Assembly: GCA_963666515.2 (NCBI GenBank)
Contig: OY762897.2
Location: forward strand, 4,544,001-4,608,000
Direction: 5' to 3'
Length of the DNA: 64,000 nt
Origin: Candidatus Binatia bacterium
Lineage (GTDB): Bacteria > Desulfobacterota > Binatia > UBA9968 > JAJDTQ01
Shown piece by piece: positions 27,672 through 41,236 of this stretch. Within the stretch, counting starts at the first letter, position 1; each line of letters opens with the position of its first letter. Below the pieces are notes generated by a model, which saw only the letters and a list, made by a program, of their open reading frames with translations, was not told the DNA's origin and searched no databases. Both the position numbers and the translations under genes were made by a program.

Positions 27672-27992
27672 ATGGCTAGCCAACCGGAACAAGAAGGATC
27701 GAACCGGCGGGTCATCCGACACCGTGTACGGGTGTCCGCCGAAGGGTTGAGGCGGGTTGAGGTGACCGTGCCGGCAAACGACTCTCAACTCGTAAAGGCA
27801 TTGGCAGGCGTGCTTCGTGCGGGGGGCGATGAGGCGATGAGGGTGCGCGAGGCCTTCATGTCAATGACGGCTACGGAACCCGTGCGCACTGGCGCCGAGC
27901 TCCTGGTTTTCCTACGCACCTCGCCGCTGGTGGGTGAAGACCTGACAATCGAGCGTGACAAAACCACGGGCCGCACGGTCGACCTCGGATAA
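27672..27992 (+). CDS. Antitoxin (VapB-like, RHH-type N-terminus)
   Basis: 106 aa with a GAGGAGG RBS; 'RRVEVTVP', C-terminal 'SPLVGEDL.IERD...GRTVDL'; coupled to the PIN gene by TAATG. Confidence 0.75.
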   Translation: MASQPEQEGSNRRVIRHRVRVSAEGLRRVEVTVPANDSQLVKALAGVLRAGGDEAMRVREAFMSMTATEPVRTGAELLVFLRTSPLVGEDLTIERDKTTGRTVDLG

Positions 27993-28417
27993 TGGCTTAC
28001 CTGATCGACACGAACGTGATCAGTGAGACTTTCAAGCCGCGACCCGAACGTCGCGTGGTCGATTGGATTGGTCGCCAGATGGCAAGTGATCTGTTCCTTG
28101 CGTCGATCAGCCTTGGTGAACTGGTGCGCGGCGTCCGCCGCATGAGGGAGCAGGCCAGGAGAGAACGCTTTGAACGGTGGATTGATCACGATCTGGCCGC
28201 CCAGTTTCAGGGGCGCATCCTTCCCTTCGACCATGAAGCAGCGGTGATTTGGGGTGAGATCATGGGCGACGGCGACCGGACCGGGCGGCCGAGACCCATG
28301 GCCGACGCGCAAATTGCCGCCGTCGCCCGACGGCATGGTCTGACGCTTGTCACCCGCAATATCCGCGACTTCGCAAAGATGGAAGTGGAGATGTTCGACC
28401 CTTGGGGGTCAGCCTGA
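27992..28417 (+). CDS. vapC: PIN-domain toxin (VapC family)
   Basis: Motifs 'YLIDTNVISE', 'SLGEL', 'LPFD', 'DAQIAA', 'LVTRN..DF'. Confidence 0.92.
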   Translation: MAYLIDTNVISETFKPRPERRVVDWIGRQMASDLFLASISLGELVRGVRRMREQARRERFERWIDHDLAAQFQGRILPFDHEAAVIWGEIMGDGDRTGRPRPMADAQIAAVARRHGLTLVTRNIRDFAKMEVEMFDPWGSA

Positions 28418-28440: not shown

Positions 28441-29313
28441 ATGCCAAAACTTGACGGCGATGGGAACTTGGCAACGAAGCCGGTATTGCCGTTCCTCAAA
28501 TGGCCAGGTGGTAAACGGTGGCTCGTTCCCATCCTACTGACAACTATTCAGCCGACGAAGTTTAAGACGTATTACGAGCCATTTCTCGGTGGTGGTGCGT
28601 TCTTTTTCGCGCTGAATCCCGCAAGTGCTGTTCTTTCAGATGTTAACTCGGACCTAATTAACACCTACCGACAAGTCAGGTACCGTCCTTCCGTCTTGAT
28701 TCGTCAACTCCAAATGTTACCCGTGACAAGGCAGACCTACGAGTCACAGCGCAGACACTCGCCCAAGCGATCTCTCGACCGAGCAGTCCGTTTCCTGTAT
28801 TTGAACCGCACCGCTTTCGGTGGTATCCATCGCCTTAACCAGAGGGGCGAATTCAACGTCCCGTTTGGCGGCGGCGAGCGAACTCCGAAACCCCTTTGGC
28901 AGTCTGGTTTGTTACAAAGAGCCGCACGAGCTCTTCGATCAAGCACCCTTAAAGTTTGCGACTTTGAGCTCGCGATTTCTGAAGCTGATTGTGGCGATCT
29001 GGTCTACTGCGATCCAACGTATACTGTCGCGCACAACAACAACGGCTTCGTTCGATACAACGAGAACAATTTTTCCTGGGCGGATCAGCGGCGACTTGCC
29101 AAGTGCTGTCGTCAGGCGTCGCGAAGGGGTGCGACGGTCATCGTCAGTAACGCGGCTAGTCCGGATGTTCTTGAGCTATTCGATCCCCCACGGCATTTTA
29201 CTGTGAGTCGATCTAGCAACCTCTGTCCCAGAGTAGAGTATCGGCGTGCAACAGAGGAATACTTGTTCGTTTTCTCCTCGGACACGACAGCCCGAGTTGG
29301 ATCGACCGAGTGA
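28441..29313 (+). CDS. Dam-family (D12 class) DNA adenine methyltransferase
   Basis: Motifs 'PFLKWPGGKRWL', 'YYEPFLGGGA', 'SDVN.DLIN', 'FLYLNRT.FGG', 'FNVPFG'; motif IV reads DPTY instead of DPPY. Confidence 0.9.
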   Translation: MPKLDGDGNLATKPVLPFLKWPGGKRWLVPILLTTIQPTKFKTYYEPFLGGGAFFFALNPASAVLSDVNSDLINTYRQVRYRPSVLIRQLQMLPVTRQTYESQRRHSPKRSLDRAVRFLYLNRTAFGGIHRLNQRGEFNVPFGGGERTPKPLWQSGLLQRAARALRSSTLKVCDFELAISEADCGDLVYCDPTYTVAHNNNGFVRYNENNFSWADQRRLAKCCRQASRRGATVIVSNAASPDVLELFDPPRHFTVSRSSNLCPRVEYRRATEEYLFVFSSDTTARVGSTE

Positions 29314-30869
29314 GCTTGACGATGAAGAGCGAGTTTCTAGTTGTGGCCAAGAAGCTCATGGAGAGTGAGAGGCACCCGATGTCGGCTCGAGAGTTGGTTA
29401 AACTGGGAATGGATCGGCAACTCTTCTCGGATAAGATCGCGGGAGAAACTCCTCACCAAACGATGAAGGCCAAGTTGAGTGTTCACATCCGCCGGTTGGG
29501 TGAAAACAGTCTCTTCATCCGTACAGAACCAGGACGGTTCTTTCTGCGACACCTACTTGATAGTAACAGGGAACCGTTTGACGCCAAACCGATCGCACCT
29601 GTCGCGAGCACAGAGCGTGTCTGGGTTTACCGAACCACGGAACTCGACGGGCTAACGACATGGCAGGGGTTGTCGTCAGCTTGGAAGAAGGTAACCCTTG
29701 CCATGTTTTCTACGCTTCGGTGTGATGTTCGAGAGCGCCTTGAGGTTGAGGAAGACAACGATTACACACAGCTTCTGACATATGTCTTGGTCACAAGAGG
29801 TGAGGCCGTTTTGGCATACAGGCGAGGGACCTACAACCGAACTGAACGATATCTGAGAGGGTCGTTTTGCGTCGGTTTTGGGGGTCATGTGATAGAGGGC
29901 GACTTTGATCTCTTTCATGCGGGAGTTGAAGGGATACTTGAGAGTGCATCACGGGAGTTAATGGAGGAGCTGTCTCTTCCACCAACCGACATCGGACGAC
30001 TACGGCGACACGATGACTTGAAGATTGTAGGGATCATCAACGACGATTCTTCGGAGGTGGGCAGACGGCATCTAGCGTTCGTCGTCAACTACGAGGTTAG
30101 CGGTGATAGGTACTGGGACCGTCCCGAGAGAGGGGAGAAGGCGGTCACACAGTTACACTGGATTTCCACCACCGGAACGGCTCAGGTTTCCTTGTGGAAC
30201 TTTGAATACTGGTCACAGCTTTGTCTCCGGCAGTTCAGGCCACGTTTGGTGCGGGAGCGTGCAGCATACCGGCTACTCCGGCGGCGGTCACTGCGGCCTC
30301 CGCACATCTTGTGCATGATTGGCCCGGTTGGCAGCGGGAAGACGATCGCCACAGAGGTCTTGAGAAAGGACTTTGGTTACCGTGAGATCAATTCGGGGAA
30401 GGTCCTAGCAGGTATACTCAAGATTAAGCCGGTATCTGCCGCTCGTAGGCGACAGTTTCAACAGCGGGCGTGGCAATTCATCTCGCAGGAGAGTGGTCCC
30501 ATGCAACTTGCGAAGAGGATCGTCGAGATCGCAAATGGTTTGAACTCGGACAGAATCGTCGTCGATGGAATACGACAAGGACGCACTGTCGAGTCATTGA
30601 AGTTCCTCCTTGGAAGTAGACGACTTGGAGTTGTATTCGTGCAGACGCCTGTGGATTTGGCCTTCAAGTTTTTCGTCGATCGTTTTCCAGAGAATGCGAC
30701 GATGGCCGACTTCTTGGCTGCTAGAGACGCACTGGTCGAACAAGAAGTCGAAGAACTCATCTCAAAGGCCGACGCGGTCCTGTACAACTGGACCGGAACC
30801 CCTCAATATCGTGAAACCATTCGCGCCATGATGAGACAACTCGGAGTTTCCCGGGGGATTGGACGATGA
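29310..30869 (+). CDS. HARE-HTH + NUDIX hydrolase + P-loop nucleotide kinase fusion
   Basis: About aa 5-80: winged HTH 'PMSAREL...GETPHQTM...FIRTEPGRFFL'. Middle: YmaB/COG4112-like NUDIX 'QLLTYV...Y.R...GFGGHV...RELMEEL...GIINDDSSEVGRRHL'. C-terminal: NMP-kinase-like 'GPVGSGKT...VVDGIR...EQEVE...AD.VL.N'. Confidence 0.8.
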   Translation: MSLTMKSEFLVVAKKLMESERHPMSARELVKLGMDRQLFSDKIAGETPHQTMKAKLSVHIRRLGENSLFIRTEPGRFFLRHLLDSNREPFDAKPIAPVASTERVWVYRTTELDGLTTWQGLSSAWKKVTLAMFSTLRCDVRERLEVEEDNDYTQLLTYVLVTRGEAVLAYRRGTYNRTERYLRGSFCVGFGGHVIEGDFDLFHAGVEGILESASRELMEELSLPPTDIGRLRRHDDLKIVGIINDDSSEVGRRHLAFVVNYEVSGDRYWDRPERGEKAVTQLHWISTTGTAQVSLWNFEYWSQLCLRQFRPRLVRERAAYRLLRRRSLRPPHILCMIGPVGSGKTIATEVLRKDFGYREINSGKVLAGILKIKPVSAARRRQFQQRAWQFISQESGPMQLAKRIVEIANGLNSDRIVVDGIRQGRTVESLKFLLGSRRLGVVFVQTPVDLAFKFFVDRFPENATMADFLAARDALVEQEVEELISKADAVLYNWTGTPQYRETIRAMMRQLGVSRGIGR

Positions 30870-31489
30870 GCGGGGGTTACGACGAAGGATATCGACGCTG
30901 CCCTTGTTTTTGGGGCACTAGTCCAGGTAGTTATGTTAAGATTTTAACTCGTTATGTCCGTTCGTTTGACGGTCTCAAGGTCCTCGATGTGGGGTGTGGC
31001 GAGGGGAAGAACGCCGTTTTTTTGGCTGGCCTCGGTGCCGTGGTTGACGCGGTTGACGTTTCACCAGCAGCAATCGAGAACGGTACCAGGATGTGGGGGA
31101 AAGTGAGCAAGGTTTGCTGGATGGTCGCGGACATCCGTGAGTTAGAGTTGAGTCAGGAGTACGACATAGTAGTAGCGTATGGTCTCTGCCACTGTCTTAA
31201 CGACTCTACGGAGGTGTCAACTGTGGTGGCAAAACTGCAGGCCGCAACTGCAAGGGGAGGGTACAACGTACTGTGCGCCTTCAACGACCGTGGTCAGGAC
31301 CTCCTTTCTGCACACGCTGGTTTTGAGCCATGCCTATTAGGACACAGCGACTATCTGTCACAATATGCATCGTGGACAGTCCTTGCGGCGTCTGATTCGG
31401 ACCTAACAGAGAGGCACCCGCATAATGGAATCGACCACACACACTCGCTAACGCGCATTTTAGCAAAAAGAAGACATGATGTCGGTTGA
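30866..31489 (+). CDS. Class I SAM-dependent methyltransferase, TehB-like
   Basis: Motifs 'KVLDVGCGEGKNAVFLA', 'AVDVS', 'ADI', 'YDIVVAYG..H', 'LQAAT..GGYN'. Confidence 0.88.
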   Translation: MSGGYDEGYRRCPCFWGTSPGSYVKILTRYVRSFDGLKVLDVGCGEGKNAVFLAGLGAVVDAVDVSPAAIENGTRMWGKVSKVCWMVADIRELELSQEYDIVVAYGLCHCLNDSTEVSTVVAKLQAATARGGYNVLCAFNDRGQDLLSAHAGFEPCLLGHSDYLSQYASWTVLAASDSDLTERHPHNGIDHTHSLTRILAKRRHDVG

Positions 31490-32303
31490 GGATCTAAAGA
31501 GGTTGTATCGCGACGGACGGCTACTACCGTTCATTGGCGCCGGTGTGTCAGCGTCCGTGGAGTGGAGCGATGCGATGGGTTTACATCGCGGACCGACATG
31601 GGACGAAGTCGTGAGGCACGCGACGCATGAGCTAGGATTTGAAAATGCGACGTTACTCCGTGCAAGGGGGACTGATCTGCAGATACTAGAGTACTTTAAG
31701 CTACAGCATGGCTATGCTCCACTAACGAACTGGTTGGTTCGAGAAATGAACCCGCCAGACGACATTCTTAATAGGTCCATGATTCATAGCGAGCTTGCGA
31801 GGATGACTAAATGTTCAGTCTTTTATACCACAAATTTTGACGACTTTATCGAACGGAGCTTTAAGCTCCACGGGCGCAAGCATAAGAGGGTTGCGGTCGA
31901 GAGAGACATGGGGTCTCAAGAGGGAGTGGCGGAGGTCGTGAAATTCCACGGAGATTGGGGCCATCCGGAGCAAATGGTCCTGACGGAGTCAGACTACGAA
32001 AGACGGATGGAATTTAATGCACCCATGGACATGCGATTGTGGAGTGACCTACTAAATCGGACGATTCTCTTTATTGGGTACAGTTTTCGTGACCCAAACG
32101 TGGCCTACCTTTTTCGACGCGTTAAGGAGCGATTCGCGGAACTGCCGGATACGGTCGATGGCTACCGGGCACACATAGTAGTGCAAGAACCGTCTAGGTT
32201 TGAGCGGAGGTTGTTTCAAGAACGCAATATTCAGGTGATCCCTATAGACAGTGGTGACCTTACGCAACAGGTAGCGGCGCTGCTGGACGAAATCCGGAGT
32301 TAG
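31476..32303 (+). CDS. SIR2-like (SIR2_2) NADase-type protein
   Basis: Motifs 'PFIGAGVS', 'PTW', 'YTTNFD', 'KFHGD', 'VLTESDY', 'LFIGYSFRDPN'. Confidence 0.92.
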   Translation: MMSVEDLKRLYRDGRLLPFIGAGVSASVEWSDAMGLHRGPTWDEVVRHATHELGFENATLLRARGTDLQILEYFKLQHGYAPLTNWLVREMNPPDDILNRSMIHSELARMTKCSVFYTTNFDDFIERSFKLHGRKHKRVAVERDMGSQEGVAEVVKFHGDWGHPEQMVLTESDYERRMEFNAPMDMRLWSDLLNRTILFIGYSFRDPNVAYLFRRVKERFAELPDTVDGYRAHIVVQEPSRFERRLFQERNIQVIPIDSGDLTQQVAALLDEIRS

Positions 32304-32306
32304 GCT

Positions 32307-32963
32307 ATGGCACAGGCAAAGAAGACACGTGTTGTTTATGTAACCAGCAGTGCATTTAAGCAGGAAGAGAACGCAGTATTCGTTGAACACTGCCGGTTGG
32401 ATGACGGCAGGGTCGTTGGTGACGTTTTTGAGTTCGACATTCGGAGAGTGCCGATACAGGAAATCCTAAACGTGGACCTTAGGGTGATGGTCGCGGCTGA
32501 GGTTGTGAGTGCGTACAGTCAGCTTAAGGTGCCCTGTATCGTCGAGCACGCCGGTCTCATATTTGAGGAGTACCTCGATGCGTCTTACCCAGGCGGGCTA
32601 ACGAAACCGATGTGGGACACGCTGAAACAGGGTTTTGTGGATGAGACCAACTCGGCGAATAGAAAGGCTATCGCAAGGGCCGTTGTTGCATACTGCGACG
32701 GAATGACTGTCAAGACGTTCGTCGGGGAGACGAGGGGGACCATTGCGGAGCAGCCTCGTGGTGACCGGGAATTCTATTGGGATACAGTATTTGTTCCGGA
32801 TGATCCGTCCGGCAAGGCAACGGGGATGACGTACGCCGAAATCGCTCAGACTCGGTCACTGGGGCTACAGTATAAGGTGACGGAACTCTCGCAGTCGTCG
32901 GTGGCGATGAAGAGCTTTCTTCGCCACCGTATCGAAGTGGGTGATCCCGCGCTCTGGCGGTAG
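32307..32963 (+). CDS. HAM1/ITPase-fold protein with altered active site
   Basis: Motifs 'YVTSSAFK..E', 'IQE', 'VEHAGL', 'YPGGLTK', 'F.GET.GTI..PRG..FYWD.VF.P', 'TYAE'. Confidence 0.88.
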   Translation: MAQAKKTRVVYVTSSAFKQEENAVFVEHCRLDDGRVVGDVFEFDIRRVPIQEILNVDLRVMVAAEVVSAYSQLKVPCIVEHAGLIFEEYLDASYPGGLTKPMWDTLKQGFVDETNSANRKAIARAVVAYCDGMTVKTFVGETRGTIAEQPRGDREFYWDTVFVPDDPSGKATGMTYAEIAQTRSLGLQYKVTELSQSSVAMKSFLRHRIEVGDPALWR

Positions 32964-33003: not shown

Positions 33004-33178
33004 CTAGTCCACCTTGCCGTTCAGCAGGCTCGAGAGTGTCCCGTGTTTGCAGCCCAAGCGGGGCCGCCTCAGGGACATTTCAGCCGGTCTCTTCCGTGCC
33101 CTCGTGGATCAGTTCGCCCAAATGTGGTAGATTCAGCATAGGGCTTACACGTTTGATATCGTGGGCGCTCATCGTCAT
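33004..33178 (-). pseudogene. HigA-like antitoxin remnant
   Basis: The minus strand reads MTMSAHDIKRVSPMLNLPHLGELIHEGTEETG*NVPEAA, then after a frameshift LGCKHGTLSSLLNGK*. This is a HigA HTH with a nonsense codon and a frameshift. Confidence 0.7.
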
Positions 33179-33191
33179 TACTCCCTTCCCG

Positions 33192-33345
33192 TCAGTGATA
33201 GTCGATCAGGTCCAGGTCCACGGCTTCGCCGCCCACGAACCTGAACACTGCACGCCAGTTGCCGGATACACGAACACTTTGACGGCCAGCCCGGTCCCCC
33301 TTCAAGATGAAGCCGGGCGCGTCGCCACTACTTGGATGTGTTGCC
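33192..33345 (-). pseudogene. HigB/RelE (plasmid-killer family) toxin 3' remnant
   Basis: 'LKGDRAGRQSVRVSGNWRAVFRFVGGEAVDLDLIDYH*' is the canonical HigB C-terminus; the N-terminal half is missing. Confidence 0.75.
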
Positions 33346-33358
33346 TCTTGCAATAGGA

Positions 33359-33399
33359 TTCCTTGAAAATTGACCATTGACAGCGTAATATTCAAGGAA
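33359..33399. promoter_or_regulatory. Inverted repeat, putative operator of the AAA gene
   Basis: TTCCTTGAAAATT-N15-AATATTCAAGGAA (12/13 match) ending next to the ATG at 33400; TTGACA lies in the spacer. Confidence 0.45.
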
Positions 33400-34545
33400 A
33401 TGCCTTTCATCGAGCGAGACGCAATAGAATTCCAGGTCACCCGTGCGTTGCGACGCAGCAGGGGTGTGGTGCTACTGGGTCCCCGCCAGTCGGGCAAGAC
33501 TACCGTGGCGCGCCGCATCGCCAGCGGTCAGCAGGGCGAGTATTTCGATCTTGAGGATCCGTCCGATGTGGCTCGTCTGGAGGCTCCCAGGCTGGTGCTG
33601 GAACGCGCGCAGGGTCTCGTCGTCCTGGACGAGATCCAGTTGCGGGTGGATCTTCTGCCTTTGCTGCGCGTGCTCCTGGACCGGCAGCCGCTTCCGGCCA
33701 AGTTTCTGCTCCTGGGCAGCGCGGCGCCTGAAATCGTGCGGGGCGCTTCCGAGACCCTCGCAGGCAGGGTAGAGATGGTCGCCATGGCGGGTTTCCGCTT
33801 GGCCGAGGTCGGCGCTACCGGTCGTGACAGGCTGTGGCTGCGCGGAGGCTTCCCGCCGTCGTTCCTCGCCGATTCCGACGAGGACAGCTTCGCTTGGCGC
33901 GACAGCTTCGTACAGACGTTCGTCGAGCGCGACCTCCGTCGCTGGGGTTTCGAGATGGCGCCCGCGGCCATGCGCCGCTTCCTGACGATGACCGCCCATC
34001 TCCACGGGCAGCGCTGGAACGCCTCGGCCGTAGGCTCTTCGCTTGGAATCTCGCAGAATACGGTGCGGCGCTACCTGGACCTTCTCACGGGCGCCTATCT
34101 GACCCGCCAACTGCACCCGTGGTTCGAAAATGTCGGCAAGCGGCTTGTCAAATCACCGAAGGTCTACGTCCGTGACAGCGGTGTGCTGCATGCCCTGCTG
34201 GGCCTGGAGCGTCAACGCGAGGTGGAGTCCCATCCCGGGCACGGCGCTTCGTGGGAGGGCCTCTGCGTCGAGGAGATCGTCGCCGTTCACGGCGAGCGGA
34301 ACTGCTGGTTCTGGGCCACTCACGGCGGAGCCGAACTGGACGTGCTGGTGCTCGACCGCGGACGGCGCATAGGCTACGAGTGCAAATTGACGGACACCCC
34401 GAGAATGACCAAGTCGATGCACGTGGTGCTGGCCGATCTCAAGCTCGACCATCTGTTCGTCGTCTATCCCGGGGAGCTACGGTTCCCGCTCGCGGAGCAT
34501 GTGACTGCAATCGGGCTGGCTGACATCGGGCGCGACCCGGCCTGA
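33400..34545 (+). CDS. AAA_14 ATPase with DUF4143 / C-terminal nuclease-like fold
   Basis: Motifs 'GPRQSGKTT', 'LDEIQ', 'LLGSA', 'SETLAGR', 'GGFP', 'KSPKVY.RDSG', 'ELD.L...GYECK'. Confidence 0.9.
   Translation: MPFIERDAIEFQVTRALRRSRGVVLLGPRQSGKTTVARRIASGQQGEYFDLEDPSDVARLEAPRLVLERAQGLVVLDEIQLRVDLLPLLRVLLDRQPLPAKFLLLGSAAPEIVRGASETLAGRVEMVAMAGFRLAEVGATGRDRLWLRGGFPPSFLADSDEDSFAWRDSFVQTFVERDLRRWGFEMAPAAMRRFLTMTAHLHGQRWNASAVGSSLGISQNTVRRYLDLLTGAYLTRQLHPWFENVGKRLVKSPKVYVRDSGVLHALLGLERQREVESHPGHGASWEGLCVEEIVAVHGERNCWFWATHGGAELDVLVLDRGRRIGYECKLTDTPRMTKSMHVVLADLKLDHLFVVYPGELRFPLAEHVTAIGLADIGRDPA

Positions 34546-41160: not shown

Positions 41161-41236
<76 letters not shown>

Follow-up and report, generated by a model that had tools for sequence, protein, structure and literature searches.

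How could a Kongming-type immune effector be switched on in an operon that lacks the Kongming deaminase? This question is raised by five co-directional genes in a 64,000-nucleotide stretch of DNA from Candidatus Binatia bacterium (contig OY762897.2, positions 4,544,001 to 4,608,000; the whole stretch is called the window here, and positions are counted from its first letter). Kongming consists of an adenosine deaminase (KomA), a HAM1-like sensor (KomB) and a SIR2 NADase (KomC) (Zeng et al., bioRxiv 10.1101/2024.12.20.629578, Science 2025; Li et al., Nat Commun 2026, PMC13454610). The operon in the window encodes, in this order, a Dam-family methyltransferase (Dam), a protein that joins HARE-HTH, Nudix-like and nucleoside monophosphate (NMP)-kinase-like domains (HNK), a TehB-like S-adenosylmethionine (SAM)-dependent methyltransferase, a SIR2 protein and a HAM1 protein. 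An earlier, sequence-only reading had taken it for a new immune system driven by methylation rather than deamination. Our analysis shows that the operon is a real, conserved and mobile unit, and the homologies of its last two products make it very probably a KomBC-type defence system. As to its signal, a methylated nucleotide of some kind, all routes taken together, is the answer towards which the predicted proteins incline us; the full model, in which the TehB-like enzyme would methylate a free nucleotide as the signal, is held with slightly less than even confidence.

A KomC-like effector and a KomB-like sensor without KomA

The SIR2 protein found its best PDB match in KomC (8zsf, 1.8e-38 over residues 5-258), with ThsA next (8e-15), and its 275 residues hold a SIR2_2 domain (2.1e-29) and no further Pfam domain. 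Residues N120, H158 and D206 were kept in 53 of 53 relatives, the last two aligning with KomC H146, which is catalytic, and D194, which is essential for NADase activity (Li et al., PMC13454610). We assign the gene as a KomC-type SIR2 and predicted NADase effector. The HAM1 protein matched Ham1p_like (3.5e-15), and KomB outscored the housekeeping enzymes both among PDB structures (9v0g and 8zsg, about 1e-22, versus 4e-10) and in a profile search (3.7e-34 versus 3e-19). His81, in the motif VEHAGL, stands in place of the catalytic Asp in 53/53 loci, and the ordinary RdgB of the window's genome, encoded 2.96 Mb away, keeps Asp at the equivalent site. K18 and E21, the counterparts of KomB K12 and E15, are invariant. 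The gene is accordingly listed here as a KomB-type HAM1, predicted to be catalytically dead and to act as a sensor. These matches bear out the Kongming-like character that had been proposed for the pair.

A deaminase had been reported missing, and the searches agree: PF00962, the KomA-type deaminase family, gave no match in the window's genome (98.35% complete), and no such enzyme was found among the open reading frames (ORFs) of the operon and its scanned flanks. When canonical KomA was compared by tblastn with 144 related loci and the window, the sole match was weak and partial (locus L036). It lies at L036:3739-4068 on the minus strand, reaches 29% identity over 112 residues (8e-6) and sits about 2 kb upstream of Dam, in a locus whose HAM1 has a KomB-like pocket.

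The coordinates and junctions of the five genes were reproduced in full by the ORF list. Successive genes meet at GTGA (29310-29313), at ATGA (30866), in a 14-nt overlap (31476-31489) and across a 3-nt gap before 32307. Since homologues of HNK begin with MKSEF in the alignment, its true start is more likely the ATG at 29322, 8 nt past the Dam stop, and the packing remains tight. In the same region (29310-29390), the database copy of this protein from the window's genome (P0006), with 496 residues, begins inside the HARE-HTH domain; homologues have 512-515, and the public annotation probably truncates the gene. PADLOC had been expected to give partial hits at most. Its 2023 models, which predate Kongming, returned no match for HAM1 and generic ones for the other four genes: a ThsA-type SIR2, MTase_II, a mad2 methyltransferase domain and a weak IetA P-loop.

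An altered ligand pocket in the sensor

In KomB, deoxyinosine triphosphate (dITP) is contacted at its O6 carbonyl by H11, the F140 backbone and Q141, near C2' by Q141 and W142, at its phosphates by K49 and R8, and at its ribose by T66 (PMC13454610). Mutation of K49, F140, Q141, W142 or R8 abolished defence, and T66 was also tested by mutation (PMC13454610). These positions were located in the operon's HAM1 with a MAFFT alignment (A2) in which the invariant K..E pair served as the anchor and canonical plasmid KomB genes were included, namely a Zymomonas gene beside an adenosine deaminase and KomBC-only genes on Pantoea and Acinetobacter plasmids. The mapping of R8, N9 and H11 rests on MAFFT, as HMMER local alignments to KomB stop short of the N-terminus.

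Among the HNK-associated HAM1 proteins, Q141 is replaced by Tyr (50/50), T66 by Ala (50/50), N9 by Ser (47/49) and H11 by Phe, Tyr or Trp (47/49), and R8 is mostly Ser or Trp. K49 has become Glu in all 26 non-alphaproteobacterial members, that of the window included, and is Lys or Arg in all 24 alphaproteobacterial ones; F140, W142, K12 and E15 are retained. In the window's protein the pocket would consist of F17, E65, A82, F156, Y157 and W158, and two insertions make it about 35 aa longer than KomB (alignment A2). The claim that the HAM1 was altered thus held at the very residues published as dITP contacts. Aromatic residues thus stand in for two hydrogen-bond partners of the hypoxanthine O6, and a pocket of F17, F156, Y157 and W158 would suit a methylated base.

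HNK and the TehB-like methyltransferase

HNK has more than 300 full-length homologues of 500-520 aa, with a mean column identity of 62% in alignment A1, and its AlphaFold model has a predicted local distance difference test (pLDDT) score of 81.7. The middle domain falls under the Pfam threshold for Nudix (PF00293, 14.5 vs 21.1 bits) in the window's protein, and 18 of 24 homologues match at E<=0.1. The family profile matches TM1382, a putative Nudix hydrolase (PDB 3e57), at 1.9e-11, and Foldseek finds the same structure (E 2.9e-9, template modelling (TM) score 0.75). The columns of the Nudix box are invariant (G189-H193, R215, E216, E219 and E220 in A1), with a spacer longer than in the textbook Nudix pattern. 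We predict that the domain belongs to the Nudix hydrolase superfamily. A role in destroying ADP-ribose, which would block the rebuilding of NAD+ by the phage, was set aside as less likely, since the nearest relatives are of the TM1382 type and not ADP-ribose pyrophosphatases.

In the C-terminal domain, the profile matches the adenylate-kinase-related, AMP-bound structures 3lw7 and 3h0k at 1e-8, and Foldseek ranks 3lw7 first (TM 0.80), with adenylate, UMP/CMP and thymidylate kinases coming next. AAA_17 was found in 24 of 24 homologues and the P-loop is invariant. At the other end of the protein stands the HARE-HTH domain. Because domains of this family share operons with adenine methyltransferases, they have been proposed to read adenine methylation in DNA, and the ASXL1 HARE-HTH is reported to have bound N6-methyladenine (6mA, also m6A) DNA in pull-downs (PMC6591016). 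The linkage of Dam with HNK described below fits such a reader-writer pair. The presumed recognition region (HNK residues about 40-62, window 29427-29495) differs consistently between clades, reading TP.QTmK.KlSV in Dam-linked loci and TPqKSMQaRLS in alphaproteobacterial Dam-less loci.

The third gene encodes a protein that matches PF03848 (3.4e-15; 56.4 vs 20.4 bits) and, by profile, the TehB structures 4dq0 and 2xva (about 3e-17) and ToxA (2.4e-13). It falls under the TehB equivalog NF008405 of NCBIfam (68.8 vs a cut-off of 218 bits) and carries Cys/His-rich motifs specific to its family, GGYDxGY..CxCFWG and HPHNxIxHxHS. It is predicted to be a class I SAM-dependent methyltransferase that is TehB-like in fold, and not a TehB. 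Domain, profile and structure matches together support all five gene identities put forward in the sequence-only reading.

A conserved four-gene core in many phyla

An HNK-profile search over contigs from one genome per species gave 64 loci, in which a gene was counted as present at a query coverage of at least 75%. HNK, the TehB-like enzyme, SIR2 and HAM1 were all present in 49. Among the 15 incomplete loci, the contig ends in or beside the cluster in seven (L018, L041, L051, L056, L058, L061 and L062), one gene is split or shortened in three (L028, L030 and L040), and HNK or a fragment of it stands without SIR2 or HAM1 within 7 kb in five (L024, L042, L059, L063 and L064). The hosts are scattered patchily across phyla: Acidobacteriota, Actinomycetota, Alpha- and Gammaproteobacteria, Bacteroidota, Chloroflexota, Verrucomicrobia, Nitrospira, Chthonomonas, Ignavibacteria, Polyangiales and a Sericytochromatia metagenome-assembled genome (MAG). 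Cultured carriers include Rhodopseudomonas palustris BisB18, Granulicella sp. L46, Lysobacteraceae bacterium 2PB, Microvirga guangxiensis and Sulfitobacter dubius.

The most frequent arrangement in the complete loci was HNK-TehB-SIR2-HAM1 (19), followed by the window's own with Dam in front (15), HNK convergent with HAM1-SIR2-TehB (9), Dam-HNK detached from the TehB-SIR2-HAM1 block (4) and arrangements with Dam downstream (2). The proposed five-gene order thus stood for its four-gene core and not for Dam, which is found in 22 of the 49, 21 of them by BLAST and one (L005) as a divergent D12 enzyme detected directly upstream of HNK with Pfam. We therefore regard Dam as accessory. The TehB-like gene is a core member (56/64 loci) and lies always directly upstream of SIR2-HAM1, even in the 13/49 loci where this block is on the opposite strand to HNK.

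A reverse search with HAM1 was run against metagenome contigs and limited to the best 80 of 207 relatives, which biases it to the window's close kin. Where enough flank was available, SIR2 was adjacent in 59/59 loci, and the TehB-like gene was present in 45/46, HNK in 34/36 and Dam in 23/29. Pairwise identities, compared by Spearman correlations that ignore shared ancestry, rose together for SIR2 and HAM1 (0.69, 52 loci), HNK and the TehB-like enzyme (0.60), and Dam and HNK (0.52), and hardly for Dam with SIR2 (0.14) or HAM1 (0.16). This suggests two modules and an accessory gene.

The TehB-like enzyme and HNK are the sole other genes conserved around the KomBC pair. When all ORFs of 100 aa or more from the 64 loci were clustered, no other conserved partner emerged; what remained were antisense shadows within core genes (in 9 and 5 loci) and groups that spanned three loci at most. 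Insertion sites vary and flanking genes are not conserved. In nine Dam-less loci, the ORF upstream of HNK was assigned by Pfam to AAA_25, Rieske, integrase, histidine kinase, TrbI or nothing, and in L005 to the D12 methyltransferase; an integrase or TrbI thus adjoins the system in other hosts. The HNK profile retrieved a single 46-residue fragment from viral contigs, so that phage carriage is not typical of the system in the collection scanned. Interruptions, which may reflect insertion or decay, occur in some metagenome copies. About 1.4 kb separate a shortened TehB-like gene from SIR2 in L100 (L100:3724-5161), and in L117 and L118 the HNK match ends at residue 340, with about 0.5 kb of unmatched DNA after it.

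A proposed signalling route

At the effector end, close homology to KomB and KomC suggests that HAM1 would bind a non-canonical purine nucleoside triphosphate and activate SIR2, which would then destroy NAD+ and stop phage growth by abortive infection. What makes the triphosphate is the more difficult part. The TehB-like methyltransferase most likely makes the modified base, because it is the only always-present base-modifying enzyme and lies beside the sensor-effector pair. It could replace KomA by methylating a purine (deoxy)nucleoside monophosphate that rises on infection. The kinase domain of HNK would phosphorylate the methylated product, a host nucleoside-diphosphate kinase would complete the triphosphate, and the aromatic HAM1 pocket (F17, F156, Y157 and W158, with KomB H11 and Q141 lost) would read the methylated base. 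The Nudix domain, whose chemistry would run opposite to that of the kinase, may hydrolyse stray signal or precursor and so keep the system silent in healthy cells, as an off-switch or a supplier of precursor.

In Kongming the limiting step is a phage kinase that accepts dIMP (bioRxiv 10.1101/2024.12.20.629578). Because the HNK kinase is host-encoded, the trigger here must differ. It may be a rise in free deoxynucleoside monophosphates upon chromosome degradation, or DNA may be sensed through the HARE-HTH domain. In an accessory layer, Dam would mark the host DNA and the HARE-HTH of HNK would read it, so that meeting unmarked or foreign DNA, or losing contact with the marked chromosome, could gate HNK.

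Several points weigh against this model. We infer substrate, product and trigger alike, and the known substrates of the TehB family are tellurite and further small molecules rather than nucleotides, which leaves the nucleotide substrate of the present enzyme a prediction. A kinase and a Nudix domain fused in one protein could run a futile cycle, and the regulatory logic is guesswork. The clade-specific differences in the HARE-HTH may be plain divergence, and cytosine modifications have been deemed the likelier target of this domain elsewhere (PMC11037411). Shared ancestry may also contribute to the identity correlations. Furthermore, in three loci (L008, L036 and L049) the HNK and TehB-like genes of this system stand with a short HAM1 in which Q141, N9 and K49 are retained, which means that the pocket changes are not obligatory for the HNK-TehB signal module. 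Either this module can work with a KomB-like pocket, or these three sensors read something else. The three loci are from Acidobacteriaceae or Granulicella (for example L036:9168-10543), with SIR2 and HAM1 only 30-39% identical to those of the window, and look like effector-module swapping.

Dam, the host methylome and other sources of the signal

The first gene matches TIGR00571 (1.7e-57; 195.2 bits vs a cut-off of 114.85), PF02086 (2.4e-40) and PADLOC MTase_II (6.8e-69), and scores below the equivalog cut-off of E. coli Dam (127 vs 441). It carries the motifs FLKWPGGKR and EPFLGGGA, and its motif IV is DPTY and not DPPY; DPTY recurs in 8 of 25 Dam homologues and DPAY occurs in one more. We assign it as a predicted D12-class DNA adenine-N6 methyltransferase. 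It is the sole full-length D12 methyltransferase in the window's genome.

These observations bear on an alternative in which Dam, and not the TehB-like enzyme, would supply the methyl group. Phage nucleases would free N6-methyl-deoxyadenosine monophosphate (m6-dAMP) from the Dam-marked chromosome, the HNK kinase and host nucleoside-diphosphate kinase would convert it to m6-dATP, and this would act through HAM1 on SIR2, leaving the TehB-like enzyme a secondary role. We consider this route unlikely, though not negligible. It explains both Dam and the kinase, it has a precedent in the m6-dAMP trigger of PUA-Cal-HAD (bioRxiv 10.64898/2026.01.15.699771), and the aromatic pocket would suit an N6-methyl group. 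The presence of Dam here and in nearly half of the complete loci speaks for it too, but the route leaves unexplained the methyltransferase that is found in almost every locus. Dam is usually directly upstream of HNK, also in all four loci whose TehB-SIR2-HAM1 block is detached, and its identity follows HNK and not the sensor (0.52 vs 0.16). Because it stays beside the HARE-HTH protein, DNA-mark reading is an equally good role for it.

Dam-less hosts might obtain the mark in trans. In the five alphaproteobacterial host genomes of this kind that were tested, a D12-class enzyme was absent from all and a CcrM-like N6_N4 methyltransferase (369-401 aa, about 1e-65), which could supply m6A, was present in all. 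Four of five other Dam-less hosts had some D12 match, substantial in two; a D12 methyltransferase adjoins the system in L005, is on the same contig in G004 and lies elsewhere in the genome in G005, which favours the route, and G002, with zero D12 matches in genome data of uncertain completeness, counts against it. An adenine-methylated chromosome may thus be a common background of hosts of this system. The pattern is only suggestive, and the in-trans argument weak, since the same searches found m6A methyltransferases frequently in control genomes too (D12 in 6/14, N6_N4 in 10/14).

Elements of both schemes can be joined in a methylome-coupled alarm with a private messenger, which we regard as similarly speculative. 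The chromosome would carry a Dam (or CcrM) mark, and HNK would be freed from a Nudix-imposed off state by phage-induced breakdown of the chromosome or by contact of its HARE-HTH with unmarked phage DNA. Together with the TehB-like enzyme, it would then make a methylated dNTP, such as m6-dATP or a doubly modified derivative, that might resist both the host RdgB and the anti-Kongming enzymes of phages and would be read by the aromatic cage of HAM1 to activate SIR2.

Less probable again is that the signal is still (d)ITP. The operon's own kinase, once on, would phosphorylate inosine monophosphate (IMP) or dIMP from the purine pool with no need for a deaminase, and the methyltransferase would instead modify protein, DNA or a phage countermeasure. 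IMP is an abundant purine intermediate, HAM1 retains the counterparts of KomB K12, E15, F140 and W142, and the KomB-like pockets of L008, L036 and L049 speak for it. That the limiting step of Kongming is a kinase accepting dIMP (bioRxiv 10.1101/2024.12.20.629578) points the same way. However, the O6-contact residues H11 and Q141 and the phosphate-contact residue K49 are replaced in the window's clade, the housekeeping RdgB of the same genome would degrade ITP and dITP, and the tight TehB-SIR2-HAM1 block together with the co-variation of HNK and the TehB-like enzyme would put the methyltransferase in the signal path. A role outside immunity can be put aside as very improbable. The operon would then serve housekeeping or stress, by keeping nucleotide pools clean or in NAD/ADP-ribose metabolism, and would have come onto an island by chance. 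HAM1, Nudix and NMP kinases are classical enzymes of nucleotide metabolism and the operon is known here from genes alone, but the HAM1 has lost its catalytic Asp in 53/53 loci and the genome encodes a normal RdgB elsewhere, the SIR2 belongs with the immune NADases of the KomC type and has the D194 equivalent, and the operon is patchy across phyla, of low GC content (53% against 69% in the flanks) and inserted at variable sites with no conserved flanking gene and with mobile-element genes beside some copies.

Genomic context of the operon

The GC content is 0.51-0.54 over the five-gene operon and 0.68-0.72 on either side (overall 53% in the island and 69% outside). The upstream chromosomal flank encodes a MiaB-like radical SAM enzyme, RNase III, an AIR-synthase-family protein and a formyltransferase-family protein, the last two probably PurM and PurN; downstream are a UbiE-like methyltransferase gene on the opposite strand and two ABC transporters. 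Because the GC content drops amid such ordinary chromosomal genes, the five genes are placed on a foreign island. The operon was horizontally acquired, and shares this small island with a PIN-type gene pair and a DUF4143 ATPase (Table 1). Low GC content and recurrence in many unrelated genomes make the gene set more than a chance assembly.

Table 1 Features of the operon and its island, in window coordinates
Feature	Position	Strand	Basis
Small ORF and PIN-domain gene	27672-28417	+	PF01850 3.3e-18; weak MazE-like match 0.019
Dam-family methyltransferase gene	28441-29313	+	ORF list
HNK gene (HARE-HTH / Nudix-like / NMP-kinase-like)	29310-30869	+	ORF list
HARE-HTH winged-helix DNA-binding domain (HNK aa 12-81)	29343-29552	+	PF05066 4.6e-9; 24/24 homologues
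Nudix-like domain (HNK ~aa 100-310)	29607-30239	+	GFGGH...RELxEE box; 3e57 match
P-loop NMP-kinase-like domain (HNK ~aa 328-510)	30291-30839	+	Walker A GPVGSGKT
TehB-like SAM methyltransferase gene	30866-31489	+	ORF list
SIR2 gene (KomC-like NADase, predicted effector)	31476-32303	+	ORF list
HAM1 gene (KomB-like, predicted catalytically dead sensor)	32307-32963	+	ORF list
32-aa ORF next to the HigB-like ORF	33080-33178	-	same-strand neighbour
HigB-like remnant ORF	33192-33518	-	last 37 residues match PF05015 positions 56-91 of 91, E 3.2e-4
AAA_14/DUF4143 ATPase gene	33370-34545	+	PF13635 2.7e-40; PF13173 3.6e-19; PADLOC candidate PDC-S01 2.7e-78

The small ORF and PIN gene, a probable toxin-antitoxin pair, end 23 nt before Dam and stand outside the conserved system. 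The pair also precedes the operon in L001, a Bryobacterales MAG contig (73% and 84% identity), and in 0/63 other loci, and may have travelled with the window's copy of the island. The DUF4143 ATPase is likewise context; among related loci only a 90%-identical fragment was seen, after the operon of L001. Between the HAM1 and DUF4143 genes, the HigB-like and 32-aa ORFs look like the remnant of a higBA-type toxin-antitoxin pair. This remnant is bracketed by a 20-nt inverted repeat (95% complementary) with arms at 32760-32779, in the 3' part of HAM1, and 33422-33441, in the 5' part of the DUF4143 gene. The window scan found no tRNA at the island borders (its sole tRNA is at 41161), no flanking direct repeats marking an integration site were found around the island, and promoter and terminator scans gave no excess over shuffled sequence and no site at the operon ends.

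Implications

The linkage of the genes and the residues of the pocket lend the predicted methyl-nucleotide messenger moderate support. If the deaminase has indeed been exchanged for a methyltransferase and the kinase brought along, KomBC would serve as a plug-in effector for modified-nucleotide signals in general. Methylation would then probably emerge as a second messenger chemistry, and the system would show an escape from dependence on a phage-encoded kinase. To our knowledge, Kongming is so far the sole defence system that signals with a base-modified, non-cyclic nucleotide. Should the methylome-coupled alarm be true, its messenger would be the first methylated non-cyclic nucleotide in immunity, and HAM1 a re-programmable reader of modified bases. 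The link between Dam and the HARE-HTH also lets the reading of DNA adenine methylation by bacterial HARE-HTH domains be tested directly, an idea that, as far as we know, rests on gene-neighbourhood arguments and one eukaryotic pull-down. Since cultured strains carry the system, the experiments are feasible.

Comparison with known defence systems

PUA-Cal-HAD is reported to be triggered by m6-dAMP from the Dam-marked chromosome and to need host dam and the phage nuclease denA (bioRxiv 10.64898/2026.01.15.699771). The link to Dam is common to both systems, whereas the proteins are unrelated: PUA-Cal-HAD combines a PUA sensor with calcineurin-like and HAD phosphatases and depletes dNTPs rather than NAD+. 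Its signal is a monophosphate used directly, without a kinase or a small-molecule methyltransferase. With Thoeris ThsA, DSR1/2, SIR2-HerA and short pAgo-SIR2, the operon shares the SIR2 NADase domain and, by prediction, NAD+ depletion as the outcome. Among PADLOC models its SIR2 matched ThsA (1.2e-27, in the SIR2 part only) and also LmuA and Dsr2. Unlike these systems, it has no SLOG, TIR, pAgo or HerA partner domain or gene, and no TIR gene (ThsB) was found in the operon or its flanks.

With Kongming, the operon shares an adjacent, co-varying pair of a KomC-type SIR2 and a KomB-type HAM1, the exchange of the catalytic Asp of HAM1 for His, the catalytic His and D194 equivalent of SIR2, and a predicted nucleobase-modifying enzyme, here TehB-like, directly beside the pair. 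In contrast to Kongming, it has a TehB-like SAM methyltransferase in the position of the missing KomA. Where Kongming relies on a phage kinase, it brings an NMP-kinase-like domain of its own, fused to Nudix and HARE-HTH domains. SIR2 precedes HAM1, HAM1 is about 35 aa longer, its dITP-contact residues Q141, H11, T66 and R8, and K49 in the window's clade, are replaced, and an optional Dam gene is added. On these features, the operon is best described as Kongming-like at its predicted effector end, and yet not a KomABC system. KomB-KomC pairs also occur on large plasmids of Pantoea ananatis (L066) and Acinetobacter venetianus (L067), next to a YebG-family gene; the annotation shows no gene for a deaminase, methyltransferase or kinase within 4 kb of them. 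Pantoea accounts for 95 of the 99 records of the plasmid collection that gave a HAM1 match.

Literature searches returned neither experimental work on the operon nor any account of the HARE-HTH/Nudix/kinase fusion, of the linkage to Dam or of the altered pocket. The earlier statement that the architecture was undescribed is nevertheless too strong. In a single sentence, Zeng et al. name a SAM-dependent methyltransferase and an NTPase, neither of them characterised, among the partners of KomBC modules that lack KomA, and suggest that such associated proteins make dITP or other nucleotide signals (bioRxiv 10.1101/2024.12.20.629578). By comparison with this text description, the operon probably belongs to one of these candidate types or comes near to one, and their text differs in giving no HARE-HTH/Nudix/kinase fusion, Dam or pocket changes. 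The operon is not a categorically new system but an uncharacterised, KomA-less variant of Kongming, at whose existence the literature had already hinted.

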